Below, piece after piece: positions 1,525 through 56,180 of a stretch of DNA of 64,000 bases (positions are counted from its first letter, which is position 1; each line of letters begins with the position of its first letter). Both the position numbers and the translations under genes were made by a program. The notes beneath the pieces were generated by a model. It saw nothing but the letters and a program-made list of their open reading frames with translations, ran no database searches and had not been told where the DNA came from. This DNA is from an uncultured archaeon. GTDB lineage: Archaea > Aenigmatarchaeota > Aenigmatarchaeia > GW2011-AR5. The stretch is taken from NCBI GenBank assembly GCA_964373255.1, contig CAYJTG010000003.1, positions 25,759-89,758 of the forward strand, written 5' to 3'.

Positions 1525-1721
1525 GGCACTGTCAACTTAACGGCTGTTGAAACAAACTGACGCACTAAAGTGCGTCTATCTGCTTTGGCAACAGCCTTTT
1601 CTGGGTGGTTAGCAATGGCTAACCACCCTTATAGCTAAACAAGAAAAGAATCAGGTATTATATTTCTTGTTTGCTATAATATCCAGATTATTTACTTGCT
1701 TCATAATAAGTTGACAGTGCC
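1525..1721. mobile_element. MITE-like non-autonomous element, copy 1 (about 197 bp). Flanked by 12-bp terminal inverted repeats GGCACTGTCAAC / GTTGACAGTGCC. Internal perfect hairpins.
   Basis: TIRs at 1525-1536 and 1710-1721. Positions 1537-1636 are about 95% identical to 56073-56168. Flanking direct repeat CTCTCTA (1518-1524 and 1724-1730). Internal hairpins GACGCAC-taaa-GTGCGTC and GGTGGTTAGC-aatg-GCTAACCACC. Confidence 0.55.
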
Positions 1722-1727
1722 GTCTCT

Positions 1728-2402
1728 CTATAATGAAAATTTTCCCACACCCTTTAGGTTGCTGCCTGTTATCTCAAACTCCACGCTCCGCCCCTCTGGC
1801 AGGCTTCTATGTTTCCTTAGTATAGCAATTCTATGGTTCTCCTTCTCCAGTTTTTTCAGCTCTATAAGCGTCTTGCTCCAGTACTTTGCAATTGTCCTGC
1901 TTGTCAGTTCTATCCTGTCGCCCGCGCTGTATACTTGGTTTGTAACAAGAATAGGGATGCCGTATTTGCGTGTTATTCTCGAAAGAATGGAGTACTGAGT
2001 TGCCAGCTGCTTGTTTACTTTCTGAAAGTTTGTGTCATCCAGTTCTAGCCGGTACAAAGCCACAAGAGAATCAACGATGATCACGCCAATTTTTTTCTCC
2101 TTCTCCACGACACTTTCAAACTCATGCATCTTGTCATTTTGTTCCTTCCAGTCGTGGACGTGTACCATAATTATGTTTTTGAGGTCCTTTTCTGTACCGC
2201 CAAGCTGCGTGAAGCGTTCGAGAGAAAATGATCCCTCGGTGTCCATGTAAATTACCTTCTTGTCCTTCAGGCAGCTCAACGACGTGATAAGTGCTATGTT
2301 TGTCTTACCAGACCCGGCTGGTCCATATACGTTTGTTATTGCGTCCAGCTCAAGCCCGCCGCCAAGAAGCTTATCCAATGGAGAGTTAGTGGGAAGTCTC
2401 AT
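1728..2402 (-). CDS. radB: DNA repair and recombination protein RadB (short archaeal RecA/RadA paralog).
   Basis: 224 aa. Walker A motif GPAGSGKT. The RadB-typical N-terminal 'LDKLLGGGLE' is present. There is no N-terminal HhH domain. Confidence 0.85.
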   Translation of the reverse strand: MRLPTNSPLDKLLGGGLELDAITNVYGPAGSGKTNIALITSLSCLKDKKVIYMDTEGSFSLERFTQLGGTEKDLKNIIMVHVHDWKEQNDKMHEFESVVEKEKKIGVIIVDSLVALYRLELDDTNFQKVNKQLATQYSILSRITRKYGIPILVTNQVYSAGDRIELTSRTIAKYWSKTLIELKKLEKENHRIAILRKHRSLPEGRSVEFEITGSNLKGVGKFSL

Positions 2403-2455: not shown

Positions 2456-3082
2456 TTGTATCGTCTGCGGGCGAGCAGAAAGGGCGATATTAGTGCTTTA
2501 AAGATACATGAGTTAATTCTGAATATGCCAAACTTCTATTTTGACATAGAAACTACTGGTTTGGATCCTAAAGACCATAAGATAATAACAATACAGTTCA
2601 TGGAACTGGATTCTATAACATCCAAGCCAAAGGGAGAGTTGATTATACTAAAAGAATGGGAATCCTCGGAAAGAGATATGCTAAAAGAATTCATTGAACG
2701 TTCCAGAATAACAGACGATTACCCGTTTTCTTTTGTCCCCGTTGGCTATAACCTGAAATTCGAGCATAATTTTTTGATAGAAAGGACAAGGGTAAACAAA
2801 TTACAGGTTGTAGATATTTTGAAAAGACCTTTCATAGATTTGATACCTTTTGGAATAGTGATGAACAAAGGTCAGTTCAAGGGGTCAGGGTTAGACAAGA
2901 TAACAGGAAAGAATCGAGAAGGCAGCGTAATACCTAATTGGTATGACAAAAAGAACTATGACGAAATAATAAAATACATACAGAATGAGGCTGAAGAATT
3001 TGTTAAATTTTCTTCTTGGTTATACAAAGAGCTTCCACCAATGCTCAACAAATTCAAGAAAGAGCATGGAATAAATAAATAG
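2456..3082 (+). CDS. DnaQ-like (DEDD superfamily) 3'-5' exonuclease domain protein, YprB / RNase_H_2-like.
   Basis: Exo I motif 'YFDIETTGLDP'. Exo II-like motif 'GYNLKFEHNFL'. 208 aa. Confidence 0.55.
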   Translation: MYRLRASRKGDISALKIHELILNMPNFYFDIETTGLDPKDHKIITIQFMELDSITSKPKGELIILKEWESSERDMLKEFIERSRITDDYPFSFVPVGYNLKFEHNFLIERTRVNKLQVVDILKRPFIDLIPFGIVMNKGQFKGSGLDKITGKNREGSVIPNWYDKKNYDEIIKYIQNEAEEFVKFSSWLYKELPPMLNKFKKEHGINK

Positions 3083-47182: not shown

Positions 47183-48361
47183 TTAGACTGTCTCGTTGAA
47201 CCGTACCCTGAAAAGCTTGACCTCTCCGCCCCAGCTATTTACGAATTCGAAACTGTTTAGACCTACGCCGTTGAACAGAAACATCCTTGTAAACAGCGCA
47301 TTTTCCAGTTCTGGTGTCATAAAGAGGAGTGTTTGCCTTGAACCGTCTAACCATAAGGTCCCCTTGACCTCTGCCGCTGCGTCGTTATACAAATTGAATG
47401 CACCCTGACGGTCGAAGTACCATAATTTCTCTACGCGAAGAAGGTTGTTTTGCTGCTGCAGAAAAGGCCTGAGCGTGCCATTTGTCTCGTACAAAACAAA
47501 CGCGCTGTCTTGTGCAACCCTGTAATAGAATGCTATAGCGTTCTGGTCTAAAACAGGTCGCGCGGATTCTAGCGGTATTATGACGTAGTTGTGCCGCTGC
47601 CCATAGTTCGGCGCATTTGTCGGGTTCCACGTGGCGAAATAAGTCCACCACTGGCTTTTACCTATAAGATCCGAGGACGCGATATAGTAGAGTTCATCGC
47701 AGTCGGGCTTTTTATAATCTTTCAGAATTTTCACAGCTAACGTCTCGTTGCCTGTGAACAGTGTTGTTCCGATGTCCTGTATTCGTGCCCTTGTAACAGT
47801 TCCGTCTTTATAAAACAATACGCGGTTTATGCCGTGGTCTTGCTGCTCAATAACGATCCCGGTTTTTGTTTCGTCGGTTGGCAATGTTATAGTAGAACCC
47901 TGAGATGCTCCATCAAATACAATAGCACGCCGAGCTATGCCAGTTATAAAATGCCCTGGGTCCCAGTACGTTGCGATGACGGCGCATTCCTTTGTATTGT
48001 TCTTTATCCAGTTAAGTGCCTCCCACCAGTTGTCCGAAAGCACGGTACCAGAACACTCTGAGATTCTTAGACTATCGAGGTAATAGACATTCACAAAAAA
48101 TATGAATATTATAACCAAGAGAACGAATGAAAACAGTTCTCTGTTATTTATCCTTTTGCCAAAACGTGCACCTATGGCTATAAGAAATATAACAGCGGCA
48201 CCTATATAGAGCTGTAATGAATATCCGTCAATCCAGTCCTGGGACGTCATGGAACCACAGGTTGTTTGTACGCCACTAAAGAGAATCAACAGCACATATA
48301 TGATTACTATACTGATGATGCCTGCAGTAAATTTATTCGCGTTTATGTCCATGCTAATCAC
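47183..48361 (-). CDS. aglB: C-terminal part of AglB/STT3 oligosaccharyltransferase. Three TM helices followed by a periplasmic catalytic domain with a WWDYG-type motif.
   Basis: 'TYWDPGHFITGIARRAIVFDGAS' lies immediately after the third TM helix, as the WWDYG block does in STT3/PglB/AglB. The reading frame is offset from the upstream TM ORF. Confidence 0.55.
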   Translation of the reverse strand: MISMDINANKFTAGIISIVIIYVLLILFSGVQTTCGSMTSQDWIDGYSLQLYIGAAVIFLIAIGARFGKRINNRELFSFVLLVIIFIFFVNVYYLDSLRISECSGTVLSDNWWEALNWIKNNTKECAVIATYWDPGHFITGIARRAIVFDGASQGSTITLPTDETKTGIVIEQQDHGINRVLFYKDGTVTRARIQDIGTTLFTGNETLAVKILKDYKKPDCDELYYIASSDLIGKSQWWTYFATWNPTNAPNYGQRHNYVIIPLESARPVLDQNAIAFYYRVAQDSAFVLYETNGTLRPFLQQQNNLLRVEKLWYFDRQGAFNLYNDAAAEVKGTLWLDGSRQTLLFMTPELENALFTRMFLFNGVGLNSFEFVNSWGGEVKLFRVRFNETV

Positions 48362-49541
48362 TCATGTTCTTATCCTCACCGCTAGCCAAACGGAACAATT
48401 TAGAAAATAAAATTCCTGCAGCTATAGCTACCGGGGCTGAAAACAGTATTGTAAATCTTATAGCAACAAGTGTTGCCAAGAATGGGCCAACAAACCATAT
48501 GGCGAGCAAAATAATTGTGTCAAGGTGCTGCCTCTTTTTTATAAACGAAAATAATAGGTAGATAATACAGAATATCATGAGGAAAAATGGCGAGCCTATG
48601 CGGTTTATTATTTCCTTGGCGTCAGAAGGGTTCTGAAGCTCAGCGACAGACACATAAACATTCGGGAAGGTTCTTGCTTCGCTTTTGATTTCCGGAAACT
48701 GGATTGGTCCTGTTATCGTGGAAACGATAGGGTTGACGCCGAAAACCGGAACGGTAAAGGCGAAGAACAGCAAAATAATTATGACATAAGAAAATATCGG
48801 AGACCTATAATTGTGTAATGTTTGCCTTGCATTTTTTGTTTTTATGAAACTTGTAACGATCTTTAGAAACACAAATCCTGTTATCAGCCAAACAACAAAC
48901 CAGAATCCGCTCCATGTATAGTACCACGCTGTAAGTGCTAAGCCGGCTGCAATTGAAAGTACGATTGTTTTCTTTCGAAATCCTTGTTCCAACGATATTT
49001 TATGCGCTACAACAAAAAGTGCCATGACAACTAGAGGCATCAGAAGGACTATTCCGTCGCTGTCCGGGTCGCCGCCAAGCGTTCGCGCTATAATCGATGC
49101 GTCAAACATGATAAATGCCGCTGCCAGCACACCCGCCTTCCTGTCGTACAGTGTTTTGGCCAAAAAATACATTGGTATAGCCATCAGGGCAGCAAGAAAT
49201 GCTGGAAACCATATAAGAAACTGAAATAGTGACGTGCCTTGCGAAAATATATGGTAAAACATATATGCGTATGCGCTGAAATAGACGTAGAAATCTTGGC
49301 TTATAACTCTGTCAACACCAAAAGGCGCCTGCGCAAGTTCATTTCTTGCTGGAAGTGCTCCACCGTTGTTAACTATATCTTCTATATCTCTGGCAAAATT
49401 GTACGAGTCAATATTTCTGAGGTAAGGCCACCTGTAATCTATAAGTCTTATATACATCCCAAGAATCATGATTACAACAAGAGCTATGATCACCCAGCGT
49501 TTACTCAGAAATGCCAACAACGTGTTCTTGTTTATTAACAT
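48354..49541 (-). CDS. aglB: N-terminal membrane domain of AglB/STT3 oligosaccharyltransferase (about 10 TM helices).
   Basis: 395-aa polytopic ORF with first-loop acidic motifs ('RNIDSYNFARDIEDIV', 'GGDPDSDG'). It ends in a TAG that overlaps the start of the downstream catalytic-domain ORF by 8 nt in another frame. Confidence 0.5.
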   Translation of the reverse strand: MLINKNTLLAFLSKRWVIIALVVIMILGMYIRLIDYRWPYLRNIDSYNFARDIEDIVNNGGALPARNELAQAPFGVDRVISQDFYVYFSAYAYMFYHIFSQGTSLFQFLIWFPAFLAALMAIPMYFLAKTLYDRKAGVLAAAFIMFDASIIARTLGGDPDSDGIVLLMPLVVMALFVVAHKISLEQGFRKKTIVLSIAAGLALTAWYYTWSGFWFVVWLITGFVFLKIVTSFIKTKNARQTLHNYRSPIFSYVIIILLFFAFTVPVFGVNPIVSTITGPIQFPEIKSEARTFPNVYVSVAELQNPSDAKEIINRIGSPFFLMIFCIIYLLFSFIKKRQHLDTIILLAIWFVGPFLATLVAIRFTILFSAPVAIAAGILFSKLFRLASGEDKNMSD

Positions 49542-49600
49542 ATTTGCATATGTTTGAGAAAAATGTTTAAATACCGATTATTTAGATAGGATTCCATATT

Positions 49601-49700
49601 CGTATGATGATGGTCGACGTGAGAGGCATTATCTGTCGATAATGCCTCTAGCTGACATATACGTCAACTGACGTATATGTCTACGTCGACCATCATACTT
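49601..49700. repeat. Structured palindromic element: an outer inverted repeat enclosing two perfect 12-bp hairpins with 4-nt loops.
   Basis: Outer arms CGTATGATGATGGTCGACGTG (49601-49621) and TACGTCGACCATCATACT (49683-49700). Hairpin 1 AGAGGCATTATC-tgtc-GATAATGCCTCT (49622-49649). Hairpin 2 GACATATACGTC-aact-GACGTATATGTC (49654-49681). Confidence 0.6.
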
Positions 49701-49716
49701 TAATGGAATTCCATCA

Positions 49717-50829
49717 TTATTTGCCAATAATTCTTGTTATCTTTGGCAAAAGAAACCGTGCAAGTTTGAATTTCGGGAGTTTTTTCCATTCGTCGCTGAG
49801 CTTGTCGTAATCAAAGCCGTCGAGCATGGACAGGACGTAACCAAAATCTTTGAACATCCCATCGATTTCTTTGTTTGTCAGTTTTCTGTATATCATTCTC
49901 AGCATATACTGCTTCTCTATTTCCCATGCTATATCCTTTTTCCACATTTTTTCATAGCTGCTGAGAAAATGTTTGCTGAACGTACCTTCTTTCAGCGCGC
50001 TGTTTATTACATCAGCGGCGTGCTGCGCCGCCATCATCGAGTACATTATTCCGCCTCCAGTCAGCGGCTTATTCTGGCCGCACGCGTCGCCTATCAGGAG
50101 CGCGTTGTTCTCGTAGCTTTTTGTGTAAGTGTACGGTATCATGTAGGCGTACATCTTACCCGGTGGCAGGTACGTTTTCTTGACAAAATAGTCAAAGTAA
50201 TCTTTTGGCCGTACGCACGTCATTATTCCGTACTCGTTGTTTTGCGGTATAATCCAAGAAAAGAAATCCGGCGAGAAATATTTGTTGAAAAATACGCTTA
50301 TGTCGCCTTCCATTTTTTGCCGTGTCTTCACCATTATACCCAGCGCGACTTTTGGATTTTCTATATTCATTGCACGCCTTACAACAGAATTAGTGCCGTC
50401 ACACCCGACGACAATTTTTGCCCTGTATTCTTCGTCTTTTGTCTTAACGACCGCACAGTTTTCAGCAAACTTGACCGATTCGACGGTTTCATAAGAAATG
50501 TCTGCATTTTTCCTTGCGTTTTTTCTAAGAGACCTGCCGAACATTTTCCTTCTGAGTATGTATGCGTAAGGCTCGTCTGACTGAAGGGAAAACGTGTGCC
50601 CGGAAGGCGATACGCATTCCATTTTGTTTATTCTGAATTTTACAAGCTTTTTGGCAGAACCACCAAAAATGTTGTCGAACCTTGTAGAAACTATGCCGCT
50701 GTCCTTTGGAATTACTTTTCTGTTTTGCTCCAAAATAAGCACGCTATACTTTGGGTTTATCCTTGACGCCAGGTAGCTTCCAGCGATACCGGCACCGGCA
50801 ATAACAACGTCGTACATGACAACACTCAT
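49717..50829 (-). CDS. FAD-dependent geranylgeranyl reductase family protein. Candidate polyprenol / dolichol reductase.
   Basis: 'YDVVIAGAGIAGSYLA' FAD-binding site. 370 aa. GGR/FixC-like. Confidence 0.72.
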   Translation of the reverse strand: MSVVMYDVVIAGAGIAGSYLASRINPKYSVLILEQNRKVIPKDSGIVSTRFDNIFGGSAKKLVKFRINKMECVSPSGHTFSLQSDEPYAYILRRKMFGRSLRKNARKNADISYETVESVKFAENCAVVKTKDEEYRAKIVVGCDGTNSVVRRAMNIENPKVALGIMVKTRQKMEGDISVFFNKYFSPDFFSWIIPQNNEYGIMTCVRPKDYFDYFVKKTYLPPGKMYAYMIPYTYTKSYENNALLIGDACGQNKPLTGGGIMYSMMAAQHAADVINSALKEGTFSKHFLSSYEKMWKKDIAWEIEKQYMLRMIYRKLTNKEIDGMFKDFGYVLSMLDGFDYDKLSDEWKKLPKFKLARFLLPKITRIIGK

Positions 50830-51768: not shown

Positions 51769-53381
51769 ATACGTTTTTGAAAAATCCTAGAGTGCTCATA
51801 TGGATTTTTTTCATAGTTGTTTCTATAATTGTTATAGCGCCAAATCCAAATCCACATGGTTTTGTTGTTGTCTCCGTCAACAGAACAATAGTCAACAATA
51901 TTGATCTTGGAGAAGTGATTTACACAGTAGACGACAAACCTGCAACAGCCGACATGTTTAACGATAATTATTTTGGTATAGTCAAAATTGGCACGGGCAA
52001 AGGAATAAAGTATGTGAATCTAAACGGTACGCTCGGCATCGGTGCAAACAGCGTGCCTTCTACAAATATAAGGTTCGGGCTTGACATAAAAGGTGGTGTC
52101 CGTGCCATCCTCGAGCCCAACGTTTCTACAAACGCAACTTTAGATCAGGTAATATCCACGCTTGAGGAGAGAATCAACTTCTATGGTCTGCGCGAGTCTG
52201 TCTTCAAACCGATTTATTACGAGGGTAAAGGCTTCATAGAAGTAAACATAGCAGGCGGCACAAAAGAGGAACTCAAAAATCTTATAGAGAGTCAGGGAAA
52301 CTTCGAGGCCAGGATACCGTTTACCGTATCTGTAACGGGCAACCAATTCGCGCTGAAACTGGACAAAAATTATGCAGTGCCTGTAGAAAATTCTTCCATA
52401 GTTATCGACGGCAAAAATGTACATACCGGCGAGCCGTTTTATTTGTCGGGCATTGATTTCATGCTCAACGACATAAATTCCGGCCGCGTTAACATCACCG
52501 CAAAAGTCTTTGGTGGTGATGACGTAGTCACAGTATTTCTAGATCCGCAGAGAACAAGAATAGAAAAGCTGGCAGACGGCTACAGCTGGACGTTCTCAGT
52601 TCAGCTGAGCAAAACAGGCGCGCAGAAATTTGCATACGTCACAAACAATATCAACCAGCTCGCCACAGGATACCTGGAATCGCCGATAGTCTTTTACCTG
52701 GACGGTAATTTAGTAGATTCTCTCAACATAGCATCATCTCTTAAAGGCAGAACAGAAACAGAGATCGCAATTAGCGGCGGCGCCGACACACAAAAAGAAT
52801 CCTCCCGTGAGATGGTACAGCTGCAGTCGATACTGCGATCGGGCGCGCTCCCGACTACCGTTGAGATTGTCCAGCTTGACACTGTTTCTCCAACCCTTGG
52901 CGCAGGGTTCCTGAAGAGTGCTATCTTTGCTGCGCTTGCTGCGCTGCTTGGCGTCATTATTTTTGTATCGCTGCGGTACAGAAAGCCAAAGCTGGTCGTA
53001 CCGATGATTTTTATATCAATAACAGAAATACTTATTGTCATTGGCGTGTCGACCATTATTGGATGGACGGTTGACCTAGCCGCTATAGCAGGCATAATCG
53101 CGTCAGTCGGCACAGGCATAAGCGACCAGATAATAATTCTTGACCGCGCATTAAGAAAAGAGGGGGAATACGAAGAAACGCTTCATGAAAAAATAAAGAA
53201 GGCGTTCTTTGTCGTTTTCGGCACAGCCGGCACTGTTATTGCGGCGATGCTGCCGCTTATGTTTATCGGCTTCGGGCTGCTGCGCGGCTTCGCACTCATA
53301 ACGATAATAGGCGTGCTTGTAGGAATCCTGGTAACGCGCCCTACCTACGGCGTTATTATTGAACGCCTCATGAAGGAATAG
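51765..53381 (+). CDS. secD: Protein-export membrane protein SecD.
   Basis: Start taken at the Met of MNTFLKNPRV, overlapping the secF stop. Large periplasmic domain followed by a C-terminal six-TM bundle. Confidence 0.82.
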   Translation: MNTFLKNPRVLIWIFFIVVSIIVIAPNPNPHGFVVVSVNRTIVNNIDLGEVIYTVDDKPATADMFNDNYFGIVKIGTGKGIKYVNLNGTLGIGANSVPSTNIRFGLDIKGGVRAILEPNVSTNATLDQVISTLEERINFYGLRESVFKPIYYEGKGFIEVNIAGGTKEELKNLIESQGNFEARIPFTVSVTGNQFALKLDKNYAVPVENSSIVIDGKNVHTGEPFYLSGIDFMLNDINSGRVNITAKVFGGDDVVTVFLDPQRTRIEKLADGYSWTFSVQLSKTGAQKFAYVTNNINQLATGYLESPIVFYLDGNLVDSLNIASSLKGRTETEIAISGGADTQKESSREMVQLQSILRSGALPTTVEIVQLDTVSPTLGAGFLKSAIFAALAALLGVIIFVSLRYRKPKLVVPMIFISITEILIVIGVSTIIGWTVDLAAIAGIIASVGTGISDQIIILDRALRKEGEYEETLHEKIKKAFFVVFGTAGTVIAAMLPLMFIGFGLLRGFALITIIGVLVGILVTRPTYGVIIERLMKE

Positions 53382-53384
53382 AAT

Positions 53385-53475
53385 AGTATCTCCGAAAGTG
53401 AGGTATACGCCTCTTGGCGTATACCTCGGTAGAGGATTACTGCCAACAGGCAGTAATCCAACTTTCGGAGATACT
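53385..53475. repeat. Structured palindromic element with the same architecture as 49601-49700: a perfect 15-bp outer stem enclosing two perfect 11-12-bp hairpins with 4-nt loops.
   Basis: Outer arms AGTATCTCCGAAAGT (53385-53399) and ACTTTCGGAGATACT (53461-53475). Hairpin A GAGGTATACGCC-tctt-GGCGTATACCTC (53400-53427). Hairpin B GGATTACTGCC-aaca-GGCAGTAATCC (53434-53459). Lies between the convergent secD and nac genes. Confidence 0.6.
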
Positions 53476-53484
53476 GTAGAAAGT

Positions 53485-53826: not shown

Positions 53827-53996
53827 TGTACCACCAATTTGCCTTGGCATTGTCAACTTAAGGAGCACATAGTGGAATCGAAGATTCCACTTGTGCAGGT
53901 GAAGCTTTGCTTCACCATGCATTAGCCGTTGCTAATGCTCCAGAAAGGGGTGTTATCATTTGCCTTTAATTATTTTCATTCCCTAAATTTAAAGGT

Positions 53997-56060: not shown

Positions 56061-56180
56061 GGCACTGTCACCTTAACGGCTGTTGAAACAAACTGACGCA
56101 CTAAAGTGCGTCTATCTGCTTTGACAACAGCCCTTTCTGGGTGGTTAGCAATGGCTAACCACCCTTAAGTTGACAGTGCC
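56061..56180. mobile_element. MITE-like element, copy 2 (about 120 bp). Same TIRs and core as 1525-1721 but without the ~77-bp internal segment.
   Basis: TIRs GGCACTGTCACC (56061-56072) and GTTGACAGTGCC (56169-56180). Flanking direct repeat TAAGATT / AAAGATT. Confidence 0.55.

Follow-up and report, generated by a model that had tools for sequence, protein, structure and literature searches.

What is a perfectly paired palindrome doing in the gap between a GGR-like gene and aglB in an archaeal genome? An earlier note on this stretch of DNA (64,000 nucleotides, hereafter called the window) described a 100-bp element of three hairpins at this place and offered four candidate roles: a DNA cruciform, a protein-binding site, a structured RNA or a transposon-derived palindromic element. 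We conclude, with a probability of about 0.9, that the palindrome is an old, non-coding MITE copy, inserted where the stop codon of the GGR-like gene lies. Among the suggested roles it is the transposon-derived element that is borne out, by terminal repeats, 9-bp duplications and identical copies; the readings as a terminator or as a catalogued RNA fell away. For annotation, this means that the GGR-AglB structure is to be entered as a transposon relic, and not as a regulator, an origin or an RNA gene.

The element and its locus

The structure is present as it was described, but it is larger. The outer inverted repeat consists of 14 base pairs that are 100% complementary, or of 16–19 bp if a 3-nt ATG/CAT bulge is spanned, and inside it stand two 12-bp hairpins, both perfect and each with a 4-nt loop; an inverted-repeat search also scored the second as 13 bp with a 2-nt loop. 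The outer arms extend further, imperfectly, to 49585 and 49715; the whole unit (hereafter called E1) measures 131 bp and not 100 (Table 1). The TAAA/GAAT bubble and the CAT bulge make its outer stem asymmetric. RNA folding of both strands, a check proposed in the earlier note, gave −73.3 kcal/mol for the minus strand (z = −12.3) and −72.3 kcal/mol for the plus strand (z = −11.1). As DNA, E1 folds with −42.5 kcal/mol (z = −12.1). Both strands are predicted to adopt the same Y-shaped three-way junction.

Table 1. Features of E1, its flanks and the second element E2, in positions of the window
Feature	Position	Strand	Remarks
Whole element E1, decayed copy of the Y-shaped MITE family (131 bp)	49585-49715	-	End-to-end alignment with the L010 and L043-L060 copies
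Left terminal inverted repeat GATGGAATTCCAT	49703-49715	-	1 substitution relative to family consensus GATTGAATTCCAT
Right terminal inverted repeat ATGGAATCCTATC	49585-49597	-	2 substitutions relative to family consensus ATGGAATTCAATC
4x4 internal bubble	5' side TAAA 49699-49702; partner GAAT 49598-49601	- (5' side)	Kept in every full-length copy
3-nt CAT bulge, 3' arm	Within the ATCATCAT run 49606-49613		Kept in every full-length copy
Outer stem, low-coordinate arm ATGATGGTCGACGT	49607-49620	.	Pairs perfectly with 49683-49696; covariation helix 1
Outer stem, high-coordinate arm ACGTCGACCATCAT	49683-49696	.	Inverted-repeat match
AGAG-type hairpin 1: AGAGGCATTATC, loop TGTC, GATAATGCCTCT	49622-49649 (arms 49622-49633 / 49638-49649)	.	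12 bp, perfect
Conserved junction AGCT between both hairpins	49650-49653		
GAC-type hairpin 2: GACATATACGTC, loop AACT, GACGTATATGTC	49654-49681 (arms 49654-49665 / 49670-49681)	.	12 bp, perfect
Left flanking direct repeat CAAATAAT	49716-49723	-	Target-site duplication remnant; holds the GGR stop codon TAA (49719-49717)
Right flanking direct repeat TAAATAAT	49577-49584	-	Target-site duplication remnant
TTTAAA, likely AglB TATA box	49566-49571	-	Downstream of E1, about 27 nt before the ATG (49541)
E2, more diverged copy of the Y core	53383-53480	-	15-bp outer stem, 12-bp and 11-bp hairpins, 4-nt loops, all perfect

The two neighbouring genes lie on the minus strand and leave a gap of 175 nt (49542-49716), in agreement with the earlier description. 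The upstream ORF (49717-50829) matches Pfam Lycopene_cycl/FAD_binding_3 and encodes a GGR-like FAD protein, and the downstream ORF (48354-49541) encodes the STT3 N-terminal domain of AglB. E1 is bordered by two direct repeats that match at 7 of 8 positions and lie one base outside the 9-bp register of the family. The left repeat holds the GGR stop codon, so E1 landed at the very end of the GGR gene.

Several relatives also have an STT3 gene directly after GGR, and in the four closest of them, L003-L006 (numbers with the prefix L designate loci and contigs of our comparison collection), the orthologous gaps span 42–61 nt and contain a TATA-like box and no element, although these relatives are distant (GGR 50–61% identical) and do not amount to a strain-level empty site. 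Subtracting the 131-bp element and one 8-bp repeat from the 175-nt gap leaves about 36 nt, the same order as the gaps of the relatives. The L003 gap can be aligned with the promoter segment of the window, where TTTAAA, likely a promoter element of AglB, corresponds to GTATTTAAG. Because TTTAAA lies downstream of E1, the insertion would have left the AglB TATA box intact. The earlier note had regarded structure-free orthologous gaps as the sign of a chance palindrome. The gaps are indeed structure-free, yet they indicate an insertion at this site, and that test was too narrow.

We have no evidence for a regulatory role at the GGR-AglB locus, because a T-tract is missing, the AglB promoter lies beyond E1 and the relatives do without the element. 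The insertion may well have been neutral, or nearly so, for both genes, and GGR-like transcripts probably read into E1 and carry it as a 3' extension.

A separate observation concerns AglB itself. The AglB region of the window (47183-49541) consists of a 395-residue protein with the STT3 N-terminal domain only, followed, with an 8-nt overlap, by a 392-residue ORF that has no Pfam match. The same short STT3 ORF is found in L004 and L005; in L004 a separate ORF follows directly, and the L005 sequence ends too early. Since relatives share the two-ORF layout, we gave up the suspicion of a frameshift; the division of AglB seems instead to be conserved.

A MITE family in Aenigmatarchaeota

Searches of the window with the arms of E1, both exact and with two mismatches, returned only E1 itself, and by sequence the element looked single-copy. 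The family was found by searching for architecture rather than sequence, as the earlier note had advised. We scanned GGR loci from 40 related metagenome-assembled genomes (MAGs) for two adjacent perfect hairpins inside an outer repeat. The scan uncovered a homolog (L010 2366-2497) in a different Aenigmatarchaeota MAG; its locus, between TctA transporter and methyltransferase genes, is unrelated to the GGR-AglB gap. The L010 copy has the same junction bases as E1 (G, AGCT, T) and about 20 nt on each side that are identical to the flanks of E1, and its stems differ from those of E1 by paired changes. A pattern made from the conserved flanks then retrieved 18 loci from a metagenome collection. 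The covariance model of the family scores E1 itself at 107.8 bits (E = 3.8e-28).

The copies are 131–135 bp long, almost all stem and without coding capacity. Their 13-bp terminal inverted repeats, GATTGAATTCCAT and ATGGAATTCAATC, are exact in nearly all full-length copies and run on into a long, slightly asymmetric outer stem that encloses the two hairpins. Twelve complete copies are flanked by perfect target-site duplications (9/9), each of them different (for example CATAGTTCC, CTGTTATGG and TCAGAATCG). Eight full copies share one identical 132-bp sequence in different flanks, mostly in a single metagenome (Ga0233420), which represents a population and not a closed genome; three further copies carry 1–3 substitutions against this sequence or run off the end of a contig. 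All copies lie between genes, and both orientations relative to the neighbouring genes occur. The neighbours of the metagenomic copies are housekeeping genes, among them those for ThrRS, TruD, an intein-containing RNR and Ogg. The homologs of the GGR-like protein assign the source organism of the window to Aenigmatarchaeota; the RNR beside one metagenomic copy is closest to Aenigmarchaeota proteins, and its affinity places the metagenomic host in the same phylum.

It is the small size, the terminal inverted repeats, the duplication of fixed length and the recent identical copies that identify the family as a MITE. The host phylum, Aenigmatarchaeota, is a DPANN lineage whose genomes are tiny and compact, and a MITE family is now documented in it.

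Some copies have peculiarities of their own. L045 1486-1617 has perfect terminal repeats but no target-site duplication (3/9), as expected after recombination between copies or an adjacent deletion. In L055 (2358-2590), a full MITE with the duplication TCAGAATCG sits 3 nt from an older core-only copy, so that two members stand in tandem. The MITE of L046 abuts the RNR stop codon, with TAG rebuilt from the duplicated target and the first G of the element. The RNR in question is a class II ribonucleotide reductase with a LAGLIDADG intein (L046 5241-8768), which also occurs at L065 752-4219, again in Aenigmatarchaeota.

Mobility of such copies would depend on a transposase acting in trans, which would bind the terminal repeats and cut DNA with a 9-bp stagger. 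The mobilising enzyme is most likely of the DDE type and encoded elsewhere, a class that we read solely from the terminal repeats and the 9-bp duplication. Neither the window nor 60 related loci (about 720 kb), nor viral contigs, plasmid records or phage records, yielded an autonomous element or a transposase whose terminal repeats match those of the family. Searches of all loci for the terminal repeat with two mismatches returned MITE ends and chance matches only; scans of viral contigs with a two-ended pattern, or with the terminal repeat alone, gave 0 matches; and blastn against plasmid and phage records gave none. Long-range inverted repeats in the window comprise a solo end of another family (E3, below) and no parent insertion sequence. 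Pfam annotation of 28 ORFs around the metagenomic copies, with an all-against-all comparison of the unannotated ones, revealed neither a transposase nor a recurring neighbour. A parent insertion sequence is therefore the one defining feature of a MITE that did not turn up within this limited search.

E1 probably has siblings in the samples from which it came. Logan contigs reach it from the GGR side in two runs and from the AglB side in four, and the stretch common to both sides is exactly 30 nt long, GAATTCCATTAAAGTATGATGGTCGACGTA. This 30-mer runs from GAATTCC of the left arm and begins one base past the point where the left end of E1 departs from the family consensus. With a de Bruijn assembler run at k = 31, which we take to be the setting of Logan, an overlap of 30 nt would mean a repeated 30-mer with more than one context in the sample, and such a repeat would be the reason why short-read assemblies break exactly there. 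Moreover, contig L001 starts inside E2, and L065, a contig from the same samples, breaks off about 27–30 nt into a copy whose terminal repeat differs, GCTCTGTAGAAA. These breaks suggest sibling copies in the same organism or community. Some contig ends in the collection are library artefacts: positions 1-23 of Logan contig L002 are Illumina adapter sequence (CCTACACGACGCTCTTCCGATCT).

The folded core

Perfect hairpins are more frequent in the window than expected, with 11 observed against about 2 in shuffled sequence. Two of them belong to a second element, E2 (hairpin pair at 53385-53475), which differs from E1 in sequence and is alike in layout. E2 starts 2–4 nt past the SecD stop codon (53379-53381), between convergent genes, and has neither a recognisable terminal repeat of the family nor a target duplication. 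A covariance model built without E2 nevertheless scores it at 58.4 bits (E = 1.3e-13), and its DNA fold has a z of −14.3. The covariance model found two further copies. One of them, L055 2358-2455, is a core without the family terminal repeat and lies 3 nt from the full MITE; the other, L058 1080-1174, has a terminal repeat that is unrelated, AGCTCTGTAGAAA, and combines an 8x8 bubble with a flanking repeat of about 9 bp.

We assessed the pairing in an alignment of six subfamilies, with the inner module set to a common orientation (228 cells, 38 pairs). Paired cells make up 99.6% of the 228, and G-U pairs occur in two of them. Compensatory changes on both sides, with Watson–Crick pairing kept, are found in 22 of the 38 pairs, including 7 of 12 pairs in helix 2 (the AGAG-type hairpin) and 11 of 12 in helix 3 (the GAC-type hairpin). 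None of 500 shuffles, and no slid register, approaches the covariation of the family. Next to the junction there is hardly any variation (CGT/ACG, AGAG/CTCT, AGCT and an unpaired G and T), and the distal stems and loops vary between subfamilies.

The pairing also persists in copies that have otherwise decayed. The stems of E1 are fully paired (38/38) despite three substitutions in the 26 nt of its terminal repeats, and those of E2 are fully paired (38/38) in an element without a recognisable terminal repeat. If the stems of E1 had decayed at the rate of its ends, about nine stem substitutions would be expected, a soft figure because the variants at the ends were possibly inherited from the source copy. 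Flank decay is, in addition, a noisy clock, because L010 has perfect ends yet a 7/9 flanking repeat. Simple neutral decay of an inactive transposon does not account for the perfect stems of the old copies E1 and E2. The young copies L047 and L050 carry single uncompensated stem mismatches.

The constraint on pairing appears to act on DNA and not on RNA, because G-U pairs are avoided, both strands fold equally well and copies occur in either orientation. We infer that the near-exclusive Watson–Crick pairing and the conserved junction reflect constraint on folded DNA; a strand-specific RNA function is probably not what lies behind them. Two processes could produce such a pattern. If only source copies with an intact Y transpose, this requirement for mobility would account for the conserved junction. 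Intrastrand template switching at replication could let the hairpins, with their 4-nt loops, correct their own sequence, and dead copies would then retain perfect stems while paired positions diverge rapidly. The two are compatible, and both may act.

With the asymmetric outer stem as reference, the two-hairpin module points one way in some copies and the other way in others. E1, L043 and L053 form one orientation class, and L010, L044 and L057 form the other. The inner modules of E1 and L044 are 85% identical when one of them is flipped, as against 62% in the same orientation. The inner module has therefore been inverted more than once, and the likely cause is recombination or template switching between the perfect outer arms. 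Together, the Watson–Crick covariation, the repeated inversion of the module and the perfect stems in copies with decayed ends could make the family useful for the study of palindrome evolution.

Alternative readings and related elements

Could the palindrome be a product of chance, or of assembly? The source genome is metagenome-assembled, and nothing else speaks for an artefact; E1 has the identical sequence in four independent Logan assemblies and is for this reason no artefact of assembly. Against chance stand the fold z-scores of −11 to −12, with 0 of 200 shuffles matching the fold of E1. Homologous copies also occur in other genomes and metagenomes; the family and the identical assemblies have already refuted this reading, and we leave it next to no probability. 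An improbable, though not negligible, alternative is that the host has co-opted the MITE, with the Y acting on RNA as a 3'-end stabiliser, a processing site or a terminator of the upstream gene. Such a role would fit the position of E1, E2, L010, L046 and L053, each 0–9 nt from the stop codon of the upstream gene, but where a genome is compact and its intergenic gaps are short, such proximity is to be expected. Likewise, E1 and L010 point in the same direction as both of their neighbours, whereas L048, L054, L057 and L050 are antisense to both of theirs. The perfect stems of E1 and E2, in copies with decayed or unrecognisable ends, also suit a retained function; the rarity of G-U pairs, which RNA tolerates, does not suit a function in RNA. 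Relatives keep the same gene pair without the element, and Rfam gave no match at the gathering threshold anywhere in the window, nor any on E1, E2 or E3 at E values up to 1. Scans of the window for tRNA and tmRNA found nothing. A terminator was rejected: E1 is followed by TAAATAATCGG, the first T5 tract comes about 25 nt further on, past the TATA-like box, and copies lie in both orientations. Given the 9-bp duplications and the housekeeping surroundings, and because the partner genes are missing, we set aside four further candidates that the architecture had brought to mind: a retron non-coding RNA, an attC site of an integron, an H/ACA RNA and a REP/RAYT element. A composite transposon with E1 and E2 as its ends was also dismissed, the SecD-SecF-GGR block being syntenic in relatives that lack these copies.

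The inversion of the inner module raises a different question, namely whether the outer repeats are recombination sites of a programmed switch whose flipping alters the expression of AglB or GGR. The module is known in both orientations across subfamilies, as a switch would require, but no subfamily or locus has both, and five assemblies of this locus (four from Logan and the MAG) show a single orientation. The invertible part is only about 62 bp long, there is no recombinase gene nearby, and rare recombination or template switching between 14-bp inverted repeats would suffice without any programme. We consider such a switch very improbable. The reading of E1 as a MITE leaves room for a further proposal, which is possible but which we think doubtful: that the Y core is a functional module, recognised as folded DNA (a cruciform or a single strand) by the transposase or by a junction-binding protein of the host. 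Selection, or self-correction of the palindrome, would then maintain its perfect pairing well beyond the decay of the terminal repeats, and the family would represent a structure-dependent class of archaeal mobile element, with a payload that is shared between GATTGAATTCCAT-type and AGCTCTGTAGAAA-type ends and flips within its own outer stem. If the Y core were needed for mobility, this would point to a transposase that reads the shape of DNA; it is the sole route by which the family would go beyond a routine finding.

In most respects the family resembles known prokaryotic MITEs. Like Chunjie of Geobacter, Nezha of cyanobacteria and Correia/NEMIS of Neisseria, it is non-coding, falls within 100–250 bp, has terminal inverted repeats and target-site duplications, occurs between genes in many copies and has very stable predicted folds (PMC3184786). 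Chunjie also makes 9-bp direct repeats (PMC3184786), and MITEs have already been reported to be dense in some DPANN genomes (PMC11602168). By contrast with the MITEs compared, the present family resides in Aenigmatarchaeota and has no sequence match in the annotated collections that we searched; it folds as a Y, with a three-way junction, and not as one long hairpin; its inner module is flipped between subfamilies; and no parent insertion sequence was found for it.

Among the published elements that we compared, bcr1 of the Bacillus cereus group comes closest in architecture; it is about 155 bp long and resembles a mobile element, with short direct repeats, a cruciform-like pair of stem-loops and compensatory changes (PMC3184786). 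For bcr1, transcription is reported and the discussion of structure concerns the RNA; its structural stability has reportedly been lost several times, whereas even old copies are perfect here. Moreover, bcr1 is bacterial and has 5-bp direct repeats; the present family is archaeal, has 9-bp duplications and shows no sequence relationship to it.

Other short palindromes invite comparison as well. REP, BIME and REPIN elements (RAYT) and those derived from IS200/IS605 are, like the copies described here, short extragenic palindromes. They cluster after genes, and the enzymes concerned recognise hairpins and not linear sequence. However, these types lack MITE-type terminal repeats and duplications, whereas our family has exact 9-bp duplications, and no gene for RAYT/TnpA (Y1 HUH) was seen next to any copy. 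Integron attC sites are similar in combining variable sequence with a conserved fold directly after a stop codon, and some long attC sites have branched tips. They differ in their R''/R' core sites, which are missing here, and our family has housekeeping flanks in conserved order and target-site duplications.

The window and the related loci contain further palindromes. A different MITE family, E3, is present in two copies (window 1525-1721 and 56061-56180) that are 97% identical over 107 nt. E3 has terminal repeats GGCACTGTCAAC and also folds into a Y. Both of its copies have 9-bp flanking repeats that match at 8 of 9 positions (GCCTCTCTA/GTCTCTCTA and TGTAAGATT/TGAAAGATT), and a further palindrome of about 77 nt (about 1632-1708) is nested as an insertion in the first. 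The NAC-TctA gap (window 53846-53950) contains a single E3-type terminal repeat, GGCATTGTCAACTTAAGG, with three short perfect hairpins after it (fold z = −5.7); this may be a broken or a different small element. A perfect 13-bp hairpin, CTACAAATGGATT AA AATCCATTTGTAG, occupies positions 2415-2442; on one side of it lies a RadA/Rad51-like gene (1728-2402, minus strand), on the other an RNase H-like ORF (2456-3082).

Sequences unrelated to E1 are found in two smaller arrangements. A mini Y of about 60 nt occurs in Aenigmatarchaeota at L035 2525-2584 and L028 15773-15836 and consists of TTACA, a 10-bp hairpin, GCA, a second 10-bp hairpin, A and TGTAA. Tandem hairpin pairs, with 3-nt loops usually closed by GC...GC, are present at L028 12928-12979 and L032 13023-13080. 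The two tandem pairs lie at similar distances from GGR and might represent a conserved small RNA.
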